61,886 nt of DNA from the IMG/VR virus record IMGVR_UViG_3300012683_000009; one strand, given 5' to 3'. The notes beneath the pieces were generated by a model. That model did not search any database and was not told the DNA's origin. It saw nothing but the letters and a program-made list of their open reading frames with translations. The translations under genes were made by a program, and so were the position numbers. The stretch is from a virus. Below, one piece after another: positions 2,936 through 43,159 of the stretch (the stretch's first letter is position 1; the number at the start of each line of letters is the position of its first letter).

Positions 2936-3238
2936 GTCTTACTGCTCCTGAAGTGAGGGGCCCGATGGCCAAGGGAGAGAACTGGAGTTCCCGGACGTGA
3001 GGTGGCATGGTACCCGTCCGGGTGTTCGTCAGAGAAGCAAAAGTTTGGTGTCAAGAGTGATGGAAGGTTAACCGGTACGGGATACCGGGCTCCGCTCGAA
3101 ACGGATGCGCTCCCTCCGGGGAGTGGGCTTCGACTGCTCAACCTTCCGCTTCTGGAGAGTAAACAGCGTAGGTCGCTGGCCCGCCTGCTAAGCGGTGCGC
3201 CCCGAAAGGGGTGTGATTCGAGTTCACTGCTCTCCGCT

Positions 3239-6200
3239 TCACTTCTTCTTCTTGAAAACGACTTGGACGCTCGGACGAAGGATCTGAGAACCCTCGCCAA
3301 CGAGAAGAGTGACCTGGCCGTGGAGAAGTACCTTGCCGGTGGCGGTTCCCGCTTCGAAGATGACGTGGTCTCCCTCGTTGATCTCGTTCGGCGACTGACC
3401 TCCCTCGTTGACAGGGACGGGCGCAGCAAAGACGAAGTCCGGGAACGTCGGCATCCAGTCGGTGCTCGGCTCACGCTCCAGCTTGACGAAGAAGGAACCA
3501 CCCTCTTGAACAAGAGGAGCCTTCTGCCAGATGAAGTCCGGCATGATCGGCAGCCACTCGACATCTGGCACCCGGATGAAGATGCGTGTGTAACCAAACG
3601 CTCCTGTGTCGACAGGTCTTGGTGCTGCCCGAGCGAAGTCTGGGAAGTCCGGCGACCACGCAAGAGCGGGCGTGTAGTCGAGATCGAGGAACGAGATCGT
3701 CCCCGTGTCGACTGGACGAGGCAGAGCTCTTCCAGCGAAGTCAGGGTAGCTCGGCGCCCAGTCGACGTAGGGCTCGTATTCGAGGTGAGCACGGAAGACA
3801 CCGCCGACATTGACTGGAGGCTGAGCCTTCCTTGCGAAGTCTGGGTAGTCGGGGAGCCAGTCGACGGCGGGCTCACGCTCCTGGATGACGATGACGCTCT
3901 GGCCTTGCGGAACGAGAGGCGTCTTGCCCCGAGCGAAGTCCGGATAGTCCGGGTACCAGAGAGAGTTGACCGTCGGGGCAACGAAGCGCTGGAAGAAGTA
4001 ACCGCCTTCGTTGACGGCACGAGGCAGAGCTCTTGCTGCGAAGTCTGGGTAGTCCGGAGACCAGTCGAGCTGAGGCTCTCTCTCCAGATGGGTGCGGAAG
4101 ACGCCACCTTCATTGACCGGCCTCTTCGCCGCACGTGCGAAGTCTGGGTAGCTCGGTTCCCAGGAGAGCTTCGGAACGAAGTCCGGATCAAGGAACGAAG
4201 CCCCGCCCTCTCTCAGGGTCAACGCACGAGGGAGAGGAGCAACCGCATCCTGGTAGGACGGGAACCAGTCGGTGGGCTCGTACTCCAGATGAGTGCGGAA
4301 CTGCCCACCCTCGTTGACTGGACGAGGGGCAGCTCTGGCGAAGTCTGGGAAGTCTGGGAGCCAATCGACATCTGGCTCTCTCTCAAGCTTGACGAAGAAC
4401 GCTCCGCCGACGTTCAGCGGAGGACGAGCAGCACGAGCGAAGTCAGGGAAGCTCGGGGACCAAGAGAGCTTTGGTACGAAGTCGAAGTTGTCGAAGGGGG
4501 CGAGACCGCCTTCATTGACCGCTCTTGGGAGAGCTCGACCTGGGAAGTCTGGGTACTCAGGGCTCCAGTCAGTCGTCGGTTCGTACTCAAGATGCGTCCT
4601 GAAGACGCCGCCCTCATTGACGGGGCGTGCAGCCGCCCTGGCGAAATCCGGGAAGTCTGGGAGCCAATCCGTGACCGGAATGCGAGGAGGAGTGGCTGGG
4701 ACCCGGAAGACACCGCCTTCGTTGACAGGCCTCGGAGCTGCCCGAGCGAAGTCAGGAAAGTCCGGCAACCAGTCGGTGGTCGGCTCACGCTCTTGAATGA
4801 CGAGAGCGAAGAAGCCCTCTCGAACAAGAGGAGCACTGGTCCTGGCGAAGTCTGGAAATGCGGGGGACCAAGACAGTTTCGGAACGAAATCGAAGTTGTC
4901 GAGAGAGGCGTACCCGCCTTCGTTTACTGGCCGTAGAGCTTTCCTACCGGCGAAGTCTGGGTAATCCGGAAGCCAATCGGTCGTTGGCTCGTACTCAAGG
5001 TGAGCTCGGAAGACGCCACCCTCGTTGACCGGCCGAGGCGCTGCTCTGGCAAAGTCAGGGTAGTCGGGAAGCCAGTCAGTGACTGCTTCACGCTCTTGAA
5101 TGACGAGGACACTGAGACCGGTGTCGACGGGCCGAGGCTTCGCTCTTGCGAAGTCCGGGTAGCTCGGAGCCCACGCCAGCTTGGGAACGAAGTCTGGATC
5201 GAGGAACGAGAGACCCGTCTCGGCAAGAGCAGTTGCTCTCTTGGCTGCCTGACCTGGGAAGTCCGGATAGTCCGGGCTCCAGTCGGTGGTGGGCTCGTAT
5301 TCGAGGTGGGTTCTAAAGAGACCACCTTCGTTGACCGGTCGAAGAGCCGCACGACCAGCGAAGTCAGGGTAGTCAGGACTCCAATCGAGCTGTGGCTCCC
5401 TCTCCAGATTCGTCCAGAAGAGACCACCCTGTGGGTTTCGAGCAGCGGCCCGAACCTGATCAACACCTTGGTCCCACGGGAAGCCAGTTGACGGGTCGAA
5501 GCCTGTCGGAGTGAAGACGAAAGGAGCTTCTCCGCCCTTCTCGACAGGAACTGCTCTTGCCCGAGCGAAGTCCGAGAAGGTCGGCTGCCACGCCATCTTC
5601 GACACGAAGTCGAGAACGGGCCCTCGGATGTTCTCCCACTGGCTGACGGCGAACGGTGAGAGAGTGTTGCCGTTGACGGAAGAGTCGACGAGCTTGTCGG
5701 CTTCCGACGCGAACTTCCAGAACCCGCTCAGGTTCGAAGTTCTGACCGTGGTGAACGAAAGACGCTCAGCCTCGATCTCAGCGTCAGTGAGCTGGGCATC
5801 GTACAGCTTCCAAAGAGACAACCCTCCCGTTAGGAAGTTGGAAGTCGTGTACGAGAAGTACATCTTGAACGAGGCGCCCTGGGCGACGATCGTTCCTGTG
5901 GCACTGACGATGGCGTCGGTCTCGGTGCCACGGAAGATGGTAGCCGTGGTGCCGTTGACCCGAAGAGCGATGAAGTAATACTTCTGATCGACCAGCGCTC
6001 CGGAGATCGTCGCTGGCCGGGTGAAGCCGAAGGTGTCGACGAGAGCGACCTGCCCGGTCTTGAATTCAAGAGCGAGACCAGTGCCGGCGGCGTCACTGAC
6101 CCAGATCAGTGAGTCGTCGGCAGTAGCTGCATCGAACTTGGCCCAACCGCAGACCGTGTAGCTGGTGTTGTTCGCCGGAAGCCCGCTACGGAAGAGCGGG

Positions 6201-7375
6201 TCGTTGGCCGAATCGAACCTGATGGCCCCGAGCCCGGCTCTGGGGACCTCAAAGAGTCCGCCCTCAGGAACTAGACGTGGAAGCCTTCGAGCAAAGTCCG
6301 GGTACTGTGGAAGCCACGAAGGACTGTTCGCCGGGCTGAAGCCTGCTGGAACGAAGGTAAAGTCGACAGCCCCACCACCGTCTAGAACTCCTCGACTCTG
6401 CGGACGTAGAGCAGGAGCTTCCTCTACCTGTTCGAAGAAGGTCTTGAGAGACGGATCGAACGGCCCATCCTGGAGGAACGGACCTTCTTCCGTGCTCCAA
6501 GAACCGGCCCCGATGTCAGAGAGATTACGAACAAAGCCGCTGGAGTCGATTAGACGAGTAGCGGCATTCTCCAGCTTCCAGACGAACTCGATGTTCGCCG
6601 TACGAGCAGGGAGAATTCGCGTCGACTCGGCGAGAGCTTCGGCTGCCGACAGCGGAACACTGTGAACCTTGAAGCCAGTGAGGCGTCCATCGAAGTTGTC
6701 GAGGAAATCGTCGGTACCAATCTCGAAGGTGGTGGGCGTCCACCCCGTCGTCATTCCAGTGACAACAGTATGAGTAAGCGGACCGCCAACTACGCCAACG
6801 TATGCATCGGCGTTTCCTCCAGTGCCGACCGAGATGCAGGCAAACATCCACTTGCCTGGGACGAAGGTCTCGATGAGAACGAAGCCTCCGTTCCAAGCGA
6901 GGAGGATCTCGTTGTCGCTGAGGACTTCGATGTTGTGGTAGTTGGTCGGGCCAGCGTCGTTCAGGGTCCAGAACGCAGCGTCGCCAGCAGGCGTGGTGGT
7001 CTTATAGAAGAAGCAAGAGACCGAGTAGTTGGTCGGCCCTACGAGATTCGTGTCTCGATGGAGTCCGTTGTTGTGATCAAGACCAACGAGCTTGAGCGCC
7101 GTTCCGAACTGAGACGGTGGTTTCGACTCGGCGTCCTGACGAAGGCCCGGCGACCGTACGGCTGCTCTTGCCGGCTGATCAGGGTACGACGGAAGCCAGG
7201 TCGGAACTGCTCCGGGATCTACTCCCGGAGGAACAAAGACGAAGGCTGTCGCCGCCAGAAGAAGAGCAGTAGCCCTTCTCGGCACGCTATGCGCCGGAGG
7301 CCCAGGAGGCTGCTCGTAGGGAAACCCGTTAGCCGGGTCGAACGGTGCCGCTTGCGTGGAGAGTAGGAGCGACAA
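3239..7375 (-). CDS. Giant (1378 aa) repeat protein: two LamG/concanavalin-like lectin domains followed by about 25 copies of a 33-aa repeat (DW[LS]PD[YF]PDFAR..P.PVNEGG...); probable tail fibre/receptor-binding protein
   Basis: ORF track; LamG-like segments (NYSVSCFFYKT...WMFACISV and NTSYTVCGWAKF...YYFIALRV); repeats evident in translation; overlapping ORFs 3002..4936(+) and 2866..4191(-) are shadows of the repeats. Confidence 0.75.
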   Translation of the reverse strand: MSLLLSTQAAPFDPANGFPYEQPPGPPAHSVPRRATALLLAATAFVFVPPGVDPGAVPTWLPSYPDQPARAAVRSPGLRQDAESKPPSQFGTALKLVGLDHNNGLHRDTNLVGPTNYSVSCFFYKTTTPAGDAAFWTLNDAGPTNYHNIEVLSDNEILLAWNGGFVLIETFVPGKWMFACISVGTGGNADAYVGVVGGPLTHTVVTGMTTGWTPTTFEIGTDDFLDNFDGRLTGFKVHSVPLSAAEALAESTRILPARTANIEFVWKLENAATRLIDSSGFVRNLSDIGAGSWSTEEGPFLQDGPFDPSLKTFFEQVEEAPALRPQSRGVLDGGGAVDFTFVPAGFSPANSPSWLPQYPDFARRLPRLVPEGGLFEVPRAGLGAIRFDSANDPLFRSGLPANNTSYTVCGWAKFDAATADDSLIWVSDAAGTGLALEFKTGQVALVDTFGFTRPATISGALVDQKYYFIALRVNGTTATIFRGTETDAIVSATGTIVAQGASFKMYFSYTTSNFLTGGLSLWKLYDAQLTDAEIEAERLSFTTVRTSNLSGFWKFASEADKLVDSSVNGNTLSPFAVSQWENIRGPVLDFVSKMAWQPTFSDFARARAVPVEKGGEAPFVFTPTGFDPSTGFPWDQGVDQVRAAARNPQGGLFWTNLEREPQLDWSPDYPDFAGRAALRPVNEGGLFRTHLEYEPTTDWSPDYPDFPGQAAKRATALAETGLSFLDPDFVPKLAWAPSYPDFARAKPRPVDTGLSVLVIQEREAVTDWLPDYPDFARAAPRPVNEGGVFRAHLEYEPTTDWLPDYPDFAGRKALRPVNEGGYASLDNFDFVPKLSWSPAFPDFARTSAPLVREGFFALVIQEREPTTDWLPDFPDFARAAPRPVNEGGVFRVPATPPRIPVTDWLPDFPDFARAAARPVNEGGVFRTHLEYEPTTDWSPEYPDFPGRALPRAVNEGGLAPFDNFDFVPKLSWSPSFPDFARAARPPLNVGGAFFVKLEREPDVDWLPDFPDFARAAPRPVNEGGQFRTHLEYEPTDWFPSYQDAVAPLPRALTLREGGASFLDPDFVPKLSWEPSYPDFARAAKRPVNEGGVFRTHLEREPQLDWSPDYPDFAARALPRAVNEGGYFFQRFVAPTVNSLWYPDYPDFARGKTPLVPQGQSVIVIQEREPAVDWLPDYPDFARKAQPPVNVGGVFRAHLEYEPYVDWAPSYPDFAGRALPRPVDTGTISFLDLDYTPALAWSPDFPDFARAAPRPVDTGAFGYTRIFIRVPDVEWLPIMPDFIWQKAPLVQEGGSFFVKLEREPSTDWMPTFPDFVFAAPVPVNEGGQSPNEINEGDHVIFEAGTATGKVLLHGQVTLLVGEGSQILRPSVQVVFKKKK
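3500..5900. repeat. Coding tandem repeat region (about 99-bp period) inside the giant gene
   Basis: Periodicity of W-PDYPDFAR motif in translation; boundaries approximate. Confidence 0.6.
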
Positions 7376-7390
7376 CGCCCACCCCCAAGG

Positions 7391-7687
7391 TTACTTGCTC
7401 TGCTGAGCGAGGATGGCTGCGGCGATGCGGCTCACATCTTCGTCGCTGAGCTTCATGGTGACAACACGAGGCTCTTCGACTGTTGGCAGGCCAACCTCAG
7501 GTCCTGGGCGAGCGGCCACCGCTTCGGCCTCACCGGACCCGTCCCACACCTGGTAGAGGGTTGGTCCATTGCCCTTCTGGATCTCTTCGCGGCACTCGGC
7601 CTTTGGGTAAGTGCCAGCAGCCAGAATCTCTTCCAGCTTCTTGTGCGAAGCGTTTCGATCTGCCGTCTCGAACAGTTTCGTAGCCAT
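7391..7687 (-). CDS. Hypothetical protein (98 aa; start MATKLF)
   Basis: ORF track 7391..7735 trimmed to the ATG that overlaps the upstream stop (TAATG). Confidence 0.45.
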   Translation of the reverse strand: MATKLFETADRNASHKKLEEILAAGTYPKAECREEIQKGNGPTLYQVWDGSGEAEAVAARPGPEVGLPTVEEPRVVTMKLSDEDVSRIAAAILAQQSK

Positions 7688-8358
7688 TAGAAGATCGCCA
7701 CCTCTGCCCAAACGATGTTGACTGCTGCCGTCCAAGTACCGGTAGCTGGGACGGCCACGCTGCGAATGACGAGTCCTTCGTTCTGGACAAGGACAAAAGG
7801 GTGCCCAGCGTCTAGGTCACCAGCGTAGATGTCGGTACCTGGGCCGATGATCTGACCGTTCAGCGAAGCAGTGATGGGGCCGGGGGCGGCAATAGCTCCC
7901 ATCGAGTTGGCTTCGAGAGTGGAGGTACCGGCACCCAAAGCAGCAGTGGTGGCAATACGAATGTCACCAGCGGCCACCAGCGAAGAGCCCATGCTCGTGC
8001 GCTTCTTGAGGGTGGCCGATGGGGTAACCGAGGTACCACCGGTTCCCTGAGCCGACCAGGTCGTGACCTTCACAAGGTCTACTTGAACAGGAACACCAGC
8101 GGCGAAGAAGGTGGTGCTGACCACCGCAGAGATGCTGATGCGCTGAATGACGGCGAGGCGAGTGGCATCCGTCCAACGAAACTGGAAGATCTGCGAGTTC
8201 GCACCAAGAGCGGCGGGCAGAATGCCGGTGAAGCCACCGTACCGGTAGTGACCGAAGGAGGTGTACTCCAACGGCTTCGCTGACGTGCTGAGAGCACGGA
8301 ACGTAGTGCCCTGCACCTCGGCGACCGTTCCTCCGTTTCCCTGAACTTGAATCGCCAT
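7687..8358 (-). CDS. Hypothetical beta-rich G/A/T/S-rich protein (223 aa), structural-like
   Basis: ORF track; composition; same-strand cluster of similar small proteins. Confidence 0.5.
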   Translation of the reverse strand: MAIQVQGNGGTVAEVQGTTFRALSTSAKPLEYTSFGHYRYGGFTGILPAALGANSQIFQFRWTDATRLAVIQRISISAVVSTTFFAAGVPVQVDLVKVTTWSAQGTGGTSVTPSATLKKRTSMGSSLVAAGDIRIATTAALGAGTSTLEANSMGAIAAPGPITASLNGQIIGPGTDIYAGDLDAGHPFVLVQNEGLVIRSVAVPATGTWTAAVNIVWAEVAIF

Positions 8359-8361
8359 GCC

Positions 8362-8652
8362 TTACAGGCCTCCGGTCATTCCCGAGCTCAGGTATACCTC
8401 ACCTGACCCAACAGTGAGAGACAACTCTGTAGCCTTGTCTCTTGCAGCCGAAGCACAGGCGGCATGGATCTGAGCCACCGTTGGCGAGTTCTGCCCAACA
8501 CTCAGTTGCAAAGCCGTGATGTCGTGCGGCCCCTGAACCGCCCCGTTGTCATCGACATCTGAGCCGAAGAACGACACCGTGCAACTTACGTCGACCTCTG
8601 AGGTGTTCTGTCGGTTGAAGAACTGCTTGATCGACACAAATGCTTTGGCCAT
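8362..8652 (-). CDS. Hypothetical protein (96 aa)
   Basis: ORF track. Confidence 0.45.
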   Translation of the reverse strand: MAKAFVSIKQFFNRQNTSEVDVSCTVSFFGSDVDDNGAVQGPHDITALQLSVGQNSPTVAQIHAACASAARDKATELSLTVGSGEVYLSSGMTGGL

Positions 8653-8664
8653 TTGCTTTTCCTC

Positions 8665-9054
8665 TCAATTCCAAACCCAGGCAACGGTCCAGAGACCGTA
8701 GATGCGAGTACCAGCACCACCCACGCTTGTTACACCTTGCTGCGCTGCTGAAGATACAGGACCGAGACCGACGGCAGGACGAGTGCCAGTCAACTTGTCC
8801 AACGGCTCGTTGAGCTGACTGTTGTTGAATGCGTAGATCGTGAAACCCGTACCAGCCACGATCTTGCCGGCAAAGATGTTCATGGTCTCTACCATGTGCT
8901 CATCCGCAAGATGGTCCGCCGTATCAACTGGTCGGAGCCAGGCTTCTACGAGAGACCCAGCGACGATTCCCGCCTGTCCGGTGATGACGACAGACGCATC
9001 TGATCCACCTGGGAAGGCACCGAAGTCGATGGTGGTGGATCCTTGCGCTCCCAT
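8665..9054 (-). CDS. Hypothetical beta-rich protein (129 aa)
   Basis: ORF track. Confidence 0.45.
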   Translation of the reverse strand: MGAQGSTTIDFGAFPGGSDASVVITGQAGIVAGSLVEAWLRPVDTADHLADEHMVETMNIFAGKIVAGTGFTIYAFNNSQLNEPLDKLTGTRPAVGLGPVSSAAQQGVTSVGGAGTRIYGLWTVAWVWN

Positions 9055-9057
9055 GGC

Positions 9058-9321
9058 TCAGACTCCGATCGACTTCAGCATCCTCGCTCTCGCCTCGTCC
9101 TTCTCCATCTTCTTCTCGAACGGCGTGCAGGTTCCCGTGTTGTGACACGTCGGGCAGACCCCCTTCATGCAGAGCCGGCAGAACCCGCCGAGAGTAGACG
9201 GGTCCGCCTTTGGCTCGATGAAGACGATCTTGTTGCAGTGGCAGCAGGTGAACGTGTCCCGTTCCTTGGTGGTAGTTCCAAGGTCCGGGTCTGTCCAGGT
9301 GGCGTACCCCTGTACCCGCAT
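9058..9321 (-). CDS. Cys-rich putative zinc-binding protein (87 aa; CCHC...CxxC...CxxC)
   Basis: ORF track; cysteine pattern. Confidence 0.5.
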   Translation of the reverse strand: MRVQGYATWTDPDLGTTTKERDTFTCCHCNKIVFIEPKADPSTLGGFCRLCMKGVCPTCHNTGTCTPFEKKMEKDEARARMLKSIGV

Positions 9322-20058: not shown

Positions 20059-22395
20059 ATGATCCCGAACCACAAAGAACGAAACGTTCAGACCTCTGGT
20101 CTGGATGAGCAGGCTGTCTTCGGCATCTCTGCCGACAACCAAGCTCACATCATGACGATCCTCCGTGACACGCTCTACACGGACAAGATCCTCGCAGTTC
20201 TTCGAGAGTACAGCGCCAACGCCTGGGACTCTCATCGGATGAACGGGAAGGACGAGCTGCCCATCAAGGTCACGCTCCCCAGTCCGGCAGAGCCGACTCT
20301 CGCCATCCGTGACTTCGGTCCTGGCCTCACGCAGGAGGAAGTCTTCACCGTCTTCACTCAGTACGGAGCCAGCACCAAGAGGACCACCGACAAGGCCGTC
20401 GGAACCCTCGGCATTGGGTGCAAGAGCGGCTTCGCCTACTCCGACAGCTTCAGCATCGACTCGTACAACAACGGGACGAAGAGCACGTACGTGGCGGTGC
20501 TCGACAAGTCAGAGAAGGGCATGATCTCGCTGCTGAACCGTGAACCGTGCGGAGAAGAGTCGGGCCTCTGCATTCAGATTCCGGTCAGGCCCGAGGACAT
20601 CCCGCTGTTCATCGACAAGGCGAAGGGCCTCTTCAGGTACTTCCTCCCGAAGCCGGACATCAACACCGAGGTCGCCGACATGGCGGAGATCTCGATGGAG
20701 ATGAAGACTGGGGTGCTCACCAAGTCTGGCGGCTGGGTGGCGGTGATGGGGTGCATCCCCTACCGCATCAACATCGATCAGCTTCAGGCCATCCGCAGCA
20801 AAGAAGAGGACACCGTCAGCATCAAGAGGTTCCTCTCCGGGCTGAGCGGGCTGCTGTTCTTCAAGATCGGCGAGATCCACATCGTCGCCAACCGAGAAGA
20901 GCTCCGCTACACGAACGAGACCAAGACCGCCCTCGTGAATCGGTTCAACGATCTCATCGAGGAGTACGTCACCTCGGCTCTGAAAGACATCCAGGAGTCC
21001 GGGCTCACCTACTTCGAACGGCGAATGCGCCTCATGAAGTTCGAGGCTCTGAAGTTCGCCATTCCGGAGGTGTTGACGGAGTTCCTGAACCCGAACCTCG
21101 ACGTGAAGCACGTGAAGGACTTCTCCTTCTGCCTGACGGACTACAACCGGCACAAGCAGATCATCGGCAACTCTACAGACACCCTCCACATCCACGACGA
21201 GACCACCCTCGTCCTCAAAGATGACCCCAGGGCGTTCAGTGGCTTCAAGCTCGAAGGCCGCCCATACATCGTCAAGATCAGCCCGAAGCCAGGGAAGAAT
21301 GCAGAGCCCTGGTCGAAGATGATGCCCAAGTTCGAGAAGTTCCTCGAAGAGTACAAGATCACGGGCGTCAAGATCATCAAGCTCAGTGAGTGCGCTTGGG
21401 AAGCTCCGAAACGTGACTACGAACGTGGAGAGGTGAACGAGAAGCACAAGGTCACCACCTTCAAGTTCAACCCTGACTCGCACGGCAGTGGGTCCGATCT
21501 TTGGACCATCACGAAGCACAAGCCGGATGCCGCCGACGTGTTCGTGGTGCTGGAGAAGTTCAAGACCACCAAGAAAAGCACCTACAATCCCACGAGGAGG
21601 GAGAAGTACAGGTTCAGGGACAAGTATCACGAGACGAAGGCTTGGCTGGAGTTCTTCGGCGAGAAGATGCCTGCCGTCTACGGGTACAAGTCGACCGAGA
21701 AGAAACCGGCGTTGGAGAAGGACTTACTCGGTACCGAGTTCATCGAATGGGCTGCTGCGAGGAAGAAAGAGCTCACCGCCAAGGCGGAGATGAATCCCGT
21801 CATCTTGGAGATGGCGGAGATGGTGGCCTGGGACGATCTGGCCGAGGAAATCTACCCGAGCACGAATGAGAACCGCATCGCTTCTGCTCCGAAGCTGAAG
21901 GGGCTCACAGAGGCACTGGGGAAGAACCACCCTCTGGTTGCCGTCCTCGAACCGTACGTCGAGGCAGAGCTGAAGAAGAAGGAGTCCTGGTCCGGCTTCA
22001 ACTCCATGGAGAGCTTCATCGTCTCCAGCCAGGCACTCTGCAAGATGAAAGACAAGGCCCTAAAGGCCTTCCGGAAGAAGCTGACGAAGACCGTCGCCAA
22101 GTACCCATTGCTGAGGTCGGTACAGGGCGGCATTTCGAACCTACTGCGTGACTCGTACCCGCACTGGGTTCCCTACGTGAAGATGATCGACAAGGAGCTG
22201 AAAGATGGAAGCCGAACCGAAGTACACGATGACCAACGAGTCGCTGACCCTGGTGTGGCAGGGCAAGACGCACACAGTCCGGAGCTCACAGCCGAACTTC
22301 GAGAGCCTCCGGCGGGCGATCTCCCAGAAGGACTGGGACAGTATCCCCAAGTTCCTGACGGTCAACAGAACGCTGGGGGAGTGGGCGCAGGGTGA
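20059..22395 (+). CDS. rIIA: rIIA-like GHKL (Bergerat-fold) ATPase; ORF stays open to 22395 but coding signal (GC3) switches to the rIIB frame at about 22205
   Basis: ORF track; N box EYSANAWD, G1 IRDFGPGLT, G2 GTLGIGCKSGF; immediately followed by an rIIB-like gene as in T4. Confidence 0.7.
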   Translation: MIPNHKERNVQTSGLDEQAVFGISADNQAHIMTILRDTLYTDKILAVLREYSANAWDSHRMNGKDELPIKVTLPSPAEPTLAIRDFGPGLTQEEVFTVFTQYGASTKRTTDKAVGTLGIGCKSGFAYSDSFSIDSYNNGTKSTYVAVLDKSEKGMISLLNREPCGEESGLCIQIPVRPEDIPLFIDKAKGLFRYFLPKPDINTEVADMAEISMEMKTGVLTKSGGWVAVMGCIPYRINIDQLQAIRSKEEDTVSIKRFLSGLSGLLFFKIGEIHIVANREELRYTNETKTALVNRFNDLIEEYVTSALKDIQESGLTYFERRMRLMKFEALKFAIPEVLTEFLNPNLDVKHVKDFSFCLTDYNRHKQIIGNSTDTLHIHDETTLVLKDDPRAFSGFKLEGRPYIVKISPKPGKNAEPWSKMMPKFEKFLEEYKITGVKIIKLSECAWEAPKRDYERGEVNEKHKVTTFKFNPDSHGSGSDLWTITKHKPDAADVFVVLEKFKTTKKSTYNPTRREKYRFRDKYHETKAWLEFFGEKMPAVYGYKSTEKKPALEKDLLGTEFIEWAAARKKELTAKAEMNPVILEMAEMVAWDDLAEEIYPSTNENRIASAPKLKGLTEALGKNHPLVAVLEPYVEAELKKKESWSGFNSMESFIVSSQALCKMKDKALKAFRKKLTKTVAKYPLLRSVQGGISNLLRDSYPHWVPYVKMIDKELKDGSRTEVHDDQRVADPGVAGQDAHSPELTAELREPPAGDLPEGLGQYPQVPDGQQNAGGVGAG

Positions 22396-42764: not shown

Positions 42765-43146
42765 GGGCCCGACCTGGTTTCGACAGGGACGTAGAGATTC
42801 TTCGCTGCATGCCGAGCTGGCTCACAAGCTCGTAAATCCAAGAGAGCAAAACAACAAAAGCCAACGACAACGTTGAGCTGGCTGACAGCCCGGTTCGCCT
42901 GGCTGCTTGACCCCTGGTCTCGGTAAGCAGGCACCGAGTAGCTGAGACTGGGAAACCCATCCGGTGCTGGGGCTCGTTCAATCCTCAAGAGCGAGTTCGA
43001 GAGTCGTAACAGAGGCGTGCTGCCGAGGTGAGCCTGTCCGGGCTTCGCCCTACTCGGCATCGTCGTACAGAGTGAGAAACGGACTACGCATGTAGAAGTG
43101 ATGAGTCGAAGGTTTCTGGACGAGGGTTCGATTCCCTCCGGGTCCA
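42765..43146 (+). ncRNA. ssrA: tmRNA (ssrA), about 382 nt, with tag reading frame ANDNVELADSPVRLAA-stop (42860..42910)
   Basis: 5' GGGCCCGACCTGGTTTCGACAGGG and 3' ...GCATGTAGAAGTG...GGACGAGGGTTCGATTCCCTCCGGGTCCA align to the E. coli ssrA ends; acceptor pairing 42765-71 with 43139-45 includes a G3-U70 pair; tag ORF ends LAA-TGA. Confidence 0.85.
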
Positions 43147-43159
43147 CTTGGGAGAAGTC

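Follow-up and report, generated by a model that had tools for sequence, protein, structure and literature searches.

Host-recognition fibres decide which bacteria a phage infects and are the parts that get re-engineered, and nearly all that is known of fibre-shaft structures comes from a few cultured phages. The triple beta-spiral of adenovirus and reovirus fibres and the long and short tail fibres of phage T4 are arrays of short repeats with conserved hydrophobic, proline and glycine residues, which have to trimerise in order to fold and which bear receptor-binding domains. The choline-binding repeats and the CROPs of clostridial toxins are likewise tandem short repeats with conserved aromatic residues, found in surface-adhesion proteins, and repeats of this type are usually modelled confidently as monomeric solenoids. 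Here, we describe a phage gene carried by the 61,886-bp metagenome contig IMGVR_UViG_3300012683_000009, the whole of which we call the window. It encodes a 1378-residue protein with two LamG domains and a long array of units of about 33 residues, and offers a clear-cut case of a shaft-type repeat found in metagenomes alone. The array is like the trimeric shafts in being a long succession of short repeats, but its period of 33-37 residues and its Trp-Pro-Tyr-Pro-Asp-Phe core are unlike theirs, and it shows no sequence similarity in the PDB. It also lacks any Pfam match to the choline-binding and CROP repeats and, unlike them, is not modelled confidently as a solenoid.

The LamG part of the protein has many described counterparts. 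The model of its first LamG domain, LamG1, matches Caudovirales LamG proteins of BFVD and the cyanophage 'baseplate wedge initiator' (A0A6J5T0T1, A0A0E3FQU4), with Foldseek E-values of 1e-11 to 1e-7 and a probability of 1.0. Like the window protein, these BFVD proteins belong to tailed phages and are large (roughly 500-1500 residues); the likeness is confined to the LamG beta-sandwich, at 11-23% identity. The pentraxin, neurexin LNS and PAPP-A LamG domains (8PVQ, 2R1D, 1SAC, 8D8O) have the same fold as LamG1 (target-normalised template-modelling score about 0.6), but they are eukaryotic and extracellular, have no fibre repeat and share 13-18% identity with it. With the podophage GP4 the homology concerns a 130-residue operon neighbour (gp80, PF23140, 8JOU) and not the 1378-residue protein, and the GP4 genome is of ~60 kb as against ~200 kb for the phage of the window, judged by synteny with the contigs L001 and L007. 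A paper citing the GP4 structural study describes several sets of GP4 fibres attached around the tail (PMC11445570).

Our searches show that the repeat is a real family, new to the databases: it is absent from curated libraries and deposited phages, and present in diverse uncultured phages. The initial annotation, made from the sequence alone, had recognised no family in it, and this stands. The repeat has no Pfam match at E <= 1, PHROGs gives 0 families at E <= 0.1 for the protein or the repeat, no PDB chain matches the protein (E <= 1) or the repeat profile (E <= 10), and tblastn against 50,697 deposited phage genomes finds no match to the whole protein, nor to the array alone at E <= 1. The same deposited phages contain no tblastn match to three members of the family (P0010, P0014 and P0019). 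A hidden Markov model (HMM) of the repeat, with 33 positions and built from 62 units (alignment A1), retrieved from 1.84 billion cluster representatives 73 protein clusters at E <= 1e-3, 34 of them at E <= 1e-10, all metagenomic. This family HMM counts 24 stretches in the window protein (E 7.8e-281), and a strict form of the motif, W.P.[YFM]PDF, occurs there 20 times as against 0 times in each of 2000 protein shuffles. Across the family, 72% of the 552 spacings from one Trp to the next lie within 31-41 residues, with modes at 33 and 37, and a further 12% are about double, one motif having decayed.

Word-index searches recovered far less of the family: the whole protein gave only 6 matches, P0007 being missed, and a two-unit profile returned only one irrelevant protein of 125 residues. 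Scanning a genome collection at the DNA level with a degenerate motif revealed multi-copy loci only on short contigs of metagenome-assembled genomes (MAGs; Actinomycetes and Gemmatimonadota bins), and 29 single-copy matches, near the rough chance estimate of about 35. Because the multi-copy loci are all on short MAG contigs and the single matches are close to chance, no host can be assigned.

The open reading frame proposed in the initial annotation was recovered unchanged and lies on the minus strand, which had not been specified. Its parts are as follows.

3239-7375, minus strand: whole coding sequence, 1378 residues plus stop; TTG start at 7375, backed by the N-termini of the homologues L007 and P0041.
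7199-7375, minus strand: residues 1-59, N-terminal segment with the 'SLLLS' motif, the variant unit FDPANGFPYEQ and the hydrophobic stretch RRATALLLAATAFVFVPP.
7109-7198, minus strand: residues 60-89, first half of a split W unit (WLPSYPDQPARAAVRSPG...), broken by LamG1.
6476-7108, minus strand: residues 90-300, LamG1, a Laminin_G_3 / pentraxin-like beta-sandwich (Pfam, AlphaFold2, Foldseek), including the C-terminal 'VWKLENAATRLIDSSG...GAGSW' strands.
6317-6475, minus strand: residues 301-353, low-confidence linker ending in 'VDFTFVPAGFSPANSPS', like the tail of a B-type unit.
6239-6316, minus strand: residues 354-379, first half of a split W unit (WLPQYPDFARRLPRLVPEGGLF), broken by LamG2.
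5612-6238, minus strand: residues 380-588, LamG2 (Laminin_G_3, from Pfam); the fold evidence is for LamG1 only.
5384-5611, minus strand: residues 589-664, split-unit tail (LDFVSKMA), W unit at residue 596 (WQPTFSDFAR...) and variant unit FDPSTGFPWDQGVDQVR...
3356-5383, minus strand: residues 665-1340, tandem array of 20 units of 32-36 residues each, in three flavours.
3242-3355, minus strand: residues 1341-1378, C-terminal tail of ~38 residues, small and beta-rich (GKVLLHGQVTLLVGEGSQILRPSVQVVFKKKK).

Each unit consists of a core, (P-x-L-S/D)-W-x-P-x-[YF]-P-D-F-A-R, and of ~20 variable residues, usually with one amphipathic beta-strand. There are 23 copies of W-x-P-x-[YF]-P-D-F-A-R, 20 in tandem and three isolated at residues 60, 354 and 596, and two units with a variant core, 'FDPxxGFP[YW]xQ...D.VR', at residues 11-58 and 620-664. 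The resulting total of 25 units agrees with the initial estimate of about 25, and the motif copy that had been reported in the proline-rich N-terminal segment is indeed found, as WLPSYPDQPAR, at residue 60. The Trp is invariant in 62/62 aligned units, and P3, D7 and P30 are conserved in at least 90% of them. In the tandem array the units end in one of three ways: ...G-G-V-F-R-T-H-L-E-Y-E-P-T-T-D (flavour A), ...F-D-N-F-D-F-V-P-K-L-S (flavour B) or ...V-L-V-I-Q-E-R-E-P-x-x-D (flavour C). Their order, ABCABCxABCABAxCABxCx, amounts mostly to a super-repeat of ~101 residues.

The initial annotation placed the LamG domains ahead of the array, which holds for the tandem part, but it missed that they sit inside repeat units. 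Each LamG domain is preceded by a 'W.P.YPD...' half unit and followed by a B-type tail ('DFVSKMAW', 'DFTFVPAG...SW'). Read in this way, the window protein is one repeat array, from about residue 11 to residue 1340, interrupted by two inserted domains not far from its N-terminal end.

The units are not recent. Tandem Repeats Finder detected no tandem repeat of the units in the DNA, only a trivial 9-bp array, and this rules out a recent DNA duplication as their origin. Between motif copies the third codon positions are 55% identical, as against 75% at positions 1 and 2, and the codons are scrambled: Pro is encoded by CCA, CCG, CCT and CCC, Arg by AGR and CGN, and Ser by AGC and TCN. As there is no DNA repeat and the synonymous codons are scrambled, the copies are old and held by selection at the protein level.

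Both LamG domains are real, ordinary members of a very common family. Pfam assigns Laminin_G_3 (PF13385), and no other family, to the whole protein, in two stretches (47 bits, E 4e-12). The two LamG-like domains of the initial annotation are thus each borne out, since either one taken alone exceeds the PF13385 gathering score of 27.6 bits: LamG1 reaches 28.5 bits (residues 110-246) and LamG2 reaches 32.5 bits (residues 402-534). LamG1 is moreover supported by AlphaFold2 and Foldseek. In a model of residues 1-370 based on a 13-row alignment (A7), the predicted local distance difference test score (pLDDT) is 75-95 at residues 90-300 and below 50 elsewhere. LamG1 is modelled there as a two-sheet jelly-roll beta-sandwich with 13 strands within residues 92-297, to which the stretch 'VWKLENAATRLIDSSGFVRNLSDIGAGSW', located after the Pfam match and confidently modelled, adds strands. 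Against the PDB this model retrieves the pentraxin, neurexin-LNS and PAPP-A LamG structures on top (E about 1e-7), and against BFVD numerous large proteins of uncultured Caudovirales described as 'Concanavalin A-like', with E-values down to 1.7e-11. LamG2 shares 53% identity with the first LamG of the PF13385-bearing protein P0004, and in P0004, P0005 and P0006 modules of the LamG2 type are joined to repeat arrays of quite another kind. Judging from the structural matches in BFVD, giant structural proteins with LamG domains are a common feature of uncultured phages.

Other domains are associated with the repeat elsewhere in its family, which was not part of the initial annotation. LamG plus repeats are found in P0002, P0003, P0007, P0009 and P0041. 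The repeats flank an apiosidase-like glycosidase plus Collagen_bind_2 in P0020 (and, by eye, in P0021 and P0039), occur with unknown globular inserts in P0013, P0015, P0016 and P0022, and are fused to a C-terminal globular domain in P0008 and P0012. There are also small members of 160-350 residues with little besides repeats, many of which start with 'FQYQQxAEP'. Carbohydrate-binding and carbohydrate-cutting domains appear inserted into the array rather than attached at its tip, and the array is apparently permissive to domain insertion.

The lineages in which the family is found include ~200-275 kb genomes, a ~60-kb temperate phage and small groundwater phages. A broader proposal, which we consider possible though doubtful, is that the unit has an unseen fibre-shaft or partner-templated fold and is a 'plug-in' scaffold for the insertion of lectins and glycosidases, giving side-decorated, multivalent fibres across these lineages. 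If this is true, a new insertion-tolerant oligomeric fold would provide a new part for engineering the receptor-binding proteins of phages or tailocins, and a sequence signature for adsorption proteins in unannotated viral contigs. The new element is the repeat; the likely function, that of an adsorption fibre, is conventional.

What is the function of this protein in the phage? The first indications come from its surroundings. The gene is the last of an eight-gene operon on the minus strand (10242-3239), in which genes abut or overlap. The seven genes that precede it are the following.

9850-10242, minus strand: gene 1 of the operon, 130 residues, homologue of the GP4 'fiber I' protein gp80 (Pfam PF23140, E 6.6e-33; PDB 8JOU chain, E 1e-7; PHROG 240).
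9325-9783, minus strand: 152 residues, no family match.
9058-9321, minus strand: 87 residues, no family match; eight Cys in a zinc-ribbon-like pattern (CCHC...C..C...C..C).
8665-9054, minus strand: 129 residues, no family match.
8362-8652, minus strand: 96 residues, no family match.
7687-8358, minus strand: 223 residues, no family match.
7391-7687, minus strand: 98 residues, no family match; TAATG stop/start overlap with the gene before.

Three of the operon proteins, compared by sequence with the PDB, gave nothing meaningful, and Pfam and PHROGs gave almost no matches for the operon neighbours or for the neighbours of the relatives. The order of the operon recurs beside P0002 on the 202,773-bp contig L001 and on the 196,807-bp IMG/VR contig L007, and because of this synteny the window is most likely part of a larger phage genome, of ~200 kb. 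The fibre proteins of the window and of L007 share 40% identity, the neighbouring 152-residue proteins 67%; host-recognition proteins usually diverge faster. That the window is phage DNA is attested by an RIIA homologue, a phage ATPase family, the gp80-like gene, a tmRNA and many small open reading frames.

Several relatives are located in tail regions. Homologues of gp80 occur in both podophages and jumbo myophages, and in the jumbo myophage BUDD of Xanthomonas the genes for the baseplate hub and wedge come immediately before the homologue. P0008 belongs to a gene run just upstream of an 840-residue gene and of a Phi812-type tail tube gene, and its C-terminal domain matches a protein of Myxococcus phage Mx1 whose gene comes two genes ahead of that for the tail sheath. 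On a 61.6-kb contig of a temperate phage with an integrase, P0019 is found four genes upstream of a GH25 endolysin, and P0025 is near a 722-residue LamG protein and a weak tail-fibre match.

With modest confidence, we favour the view that the protein belongs to the virion as a fibre of the tail or of the periphery of the baseplate, with an oligomeric or partner-dependent shaft of 33-residue units and with sideways LamG domains that bind host polysaccharide. This is close to the receptor-binding fibre or glycan-binding adhesin that had first been proposed, and it is the best-supported reading because of the gene context, namely a fibre-type operon and relatives in tail regions; the virion location, the oligomeric shaft and the glycan binding are what we infer. 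The carbohydrate-directed cargo, the insertion topology, the faster divergence, the shuffling of LamG modules and a repeat unlike a disordered linker also lead us to it. In such a fibre, the units of the array would form an extended shaft only when several chains, or a chain and a partner, associate, and the variable half of the unit would tolerate the insertion of a whole domain. The LamG domains, inserted in the second and third units, would then stick out laterally close to the N-terminal end of the shaft and could bind host-surface polysaccharide, making adsorption reversible and multivalent.

A number of observations weigh against this fibre. It has no sequence similarity to annotated tail fibres (0 families in PHROGs, only LamG in Pfam, nothing by tblastn), and since sequence homology was tested and gave none, the window protein cannot be placed in any named tail-fibre family. 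The position of the LamG domains close to the N-terminus is unusual, as a fibre typically has its anchor at this end and its receptor-binding part at the C-terminus. No sheath, tube, portal, baseplate or capsid gene was recognised in the window, so that the link to the tail rests on the relatives, and no trimerisation or chaperone domain was recognised in the protein. The array itself came out of AlphaFold2 without secondary structure (residues 590-1378, pLDDT 34, predicted template-modelling score 0.17), which makes the folded shaft an assumption. Finally, PHROG 240, to which the gp80-like gene is matched, is labelled 'head protein'.

This last label is also the starting point of a different view, in which the protein would be a fibre or decoration whisker of the capsid (head) or neck of a jumbo phage, its LamG domains serving for loose adherence to polysaccharide and not for specific receptor recognition. 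PHROG 240 is the family of the first operon gene, several deposited phages annotate their gp80 homologue as a head protein, and the operon is apart from recognisable tail genes within the 62-kb window. LamG and Ig-type lectin domains are moreover common on capsid decoration proteins. However, Pfam names gp80 'fiber I protein', and a paper citing the GP4 cryo-EM study states that fibers I and II of GP4 attach around the tail via a tail-fiber adapter (PMC11445570). The BUDD homologue comes after baseplate genes, and the repeat relatives adjoin sheath or tube genes or precede an endolysin. We regard a capsid or neck location as quite unlikely.

How should the lack of predicted structure in the array be understood? 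According to the initial annotation, its interpretation would fall if no LamG-like match were found and the repeat region were predicted fully disordered. The LamG match was found; the repeat region was predicted without structure, in a model of a monomer based on a shallow 12-row alignment of repeat regions (A5) with an arbitrary repeat register. We do not take the low pLDDT as proof of disorder, because of the monomeric prediction and the shallow alignment, and because the array has conserved, periodic positions and a hydropathy on the folded side. Indeed, its mean hydropathy of 0.452 slightly exceeds the charge-hydropathy boundary of 0.433, which puts it on the folded side (the LamG domains have about 0.51), and the variable half of the unit contains a strand in which hydrophobic and polar residues alternate. 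Shafts that fold only as trimers usually give such monomer predictions. The isolated monomer may nevertheless be disordered, given that AlphaFold2 found no structure in it.

An intrinsically disordered proline-rich linker does not fit the invariant Trp, the 15% of aromatic residues and the folded-side hydropathy of the array. A monomeric beta-solenoid was rejected as AlphaFold2 produced no strands in the tandem array (residues 665-1340), and a tape-measure or internal protein as helical character is missing and the cargo domains act on carbohydrate. Were the array a flexible tether after all, the protein would be just one of the ordinary phage structural proteins with LamG domains, set apart by an unusual linker.

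The absence of intrachain structure in the AlphaFold2 model, together with the 14% of proline in the array, also agrees with an array that is a string of docking motifs. The chain would then be extended and Pro-rich, each W-x-P-x-YPDFAR core would bind a repeated partner (another protein of the operon, stacked virion subunits, or host polysaccharide through its cluster of Trp, Tyr, Phe, Asp and Arg), and the LamG domains would be cargo. The conservation is concentrated in a core of ~14 residues, the other ~20 residues varying in sequence and in length (18-27 residues), and seven small uncharacterised proteins are co-encoded. However, no partner has been identified, the narrow spacing across divergent members (modes 33 and 37 residues) and the amphipathic strand look more like a structural repeat, and the hydropathy is on the folded side of the boundary. 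On balance we think docking motifs unlikely, and retain the oligomeric or partner-dependent shaft.

The ends of such a fibre are of interest for its attachment. The hydrophobic stretch RRATALLLAATAFVFVPP of the N-terminal segment is kept in the closer relatives P0002, P0003, P0007 and P0041, as seen by alignment, and a similar form is present in P0013, P0016, P0023, P0032 and P0033, as judged by eye. AlphaFold2 places a low-confidence helix at residues 33-43, and residues 1-59 are possibly an attachment or oligomerisation element. The conserved RRATALLLAATAFVFVPP element and the 'FQYQQ' starts of the small members suggest N-terminal anchoring, whereas in the P0008 lineage the C-terminal domain, homologous to the stand-alone tail-module protein of Mx1, suggests anchoring by the C-terminus. 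The C-terminal tail of the window protein (GKVLLHGQVTLLVGEGSQILRPSVQVVFKKKK) is by eye like the C-termini of P0002, P0007 and L007, and its model contains two short strands of 3 residues, at low confidence.

The hydrophobic residues 34-48 can also be read as a membrane-interacting segment, and the evidence for an association with the virion is indirect. Both would be in keeping with a non-virion protein, secreted or modifying the cell surface during infection, for example in superinfection exclusion or polysaccharide masking. But the hydrophobic run spans only about 14 residues, with prolines coming after it, and reading the sequence (no predictor was run) reveals no signal-peptide-like N-terminus. 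With, in addition, a structural-type operon that includes a gp80-like fibre protein and relatives inside tail modules, we consider a non-virion role very improbable, and the tail or baseplate fibre remains our preferred reading.

The start of the gene deserves a comment. The metagenome's own gene call, P0001, has 1348 residues and starts 30 codons downstream of the TTG at 7375. This TTG follows the stop of the gene before it by 15 nt and has a Shine-Dalgarno-like GGGGGTGGG run immediately in front of it. The N-terminus of the homologue L007, which starts at an ATG with 'MSLLLSGAGGSTPPFNPASGFPY' (MSLLLSG...), and that of P0041, 'MSLLLSQAGPPYDPANGFPW', both match 'SLLLSTQAAPFDPANGFPY' of the window protein. 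The TTG is thus the better start, as the residues upstream of the P0001 start are conserved in these two relatives. Other long open reading frames overlapping 3239-7375 are without support and are an ordinary by-product of the 60% G+C. Promoter and terminator scans around the gene and the operon gave nothing above the shuffled expectation.

Some further features were noticed in members of the family. P0002, P0003 and P0008 have an extra N-terminal motif of the 'YLLESGAPDGYQLEDGSGVLLLE' type before their first FDP unit, of which the window protein and those of L007 and P0041 retain only 'SLLLS'. P0030, P0034, P0037 and P0043 combine the 'FQYQQxAEP' start with an end in a run of arginines (for example ...GSYIPQFRRRRK or ...NVTTRRRRR); their source metagenomes include groundwater ones, and the contigs that carry them are short and have hardly any genes that can be annotated. 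Immediately upstream of P0020 (L049:7749-12170) lies a gene for a 159-residue cupin of the Asp/Asn beta-hydroxylase type (PF05118, L049:7266-7745); no such gene is found near the window protein or in the other loci examined. From this one cupin gene beside P0020 comes the idea that the invariant Asp of the repeat, or the Asn of 'VNEGG', may be enzymatically hydroxylated.

Elsewhere in the window, the RIIA homologue (778 residues, 20059-22395, plus strand; PHROG 612, E 7e-96) has its best deposited relatives, in Pseudomonas, Streptomyces, Rhizobium, Aeromonas and Ruegeria phages, at only 26-32% identity, and for this reason we place the phage far from any cultured one. The tmRNA (42765-43149, plus strand) matches the full-length Rfam model RF00023 with 151 bits, and ARAGORN gives ANDNVELADSPVRLAA as its tag peptide. 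Two tRNA genes bracket the fibre operon: a tRNA-Ser(CGA) at 3062-3149 (plus strand), 90 nt beyond the stop of the target gene on the opposite strand and called by ARAGORN only, being under the Rfam threshold, and a tRNA-Arg(TCT) at 10926-10999 (plus strand), called by both ARAGORN and Rfam. The divergent neighbour of the operon is a vault-like protein of 896 residues (11127-13817, plus strand; MVP_shoulder E 1.6e-30, Vault_3 E 2.2e-7, and a weak Vault repeat), which is kept in the 202-kb contig (L001:3986-6652). Such a protein is unusual in a phage; a full-text literature search for a major vault protein in jumbo phages yielded only one preprint, on Borgs. Lastly, the third-position G+C is 0.63-0.66 in the target gene and the four genes just upstream (3239-9054), 0.69 in the gp80-like gene and 0.75-0.87 in most others, a difference that may point to acquisition of the fibre module by horizontal exchange.

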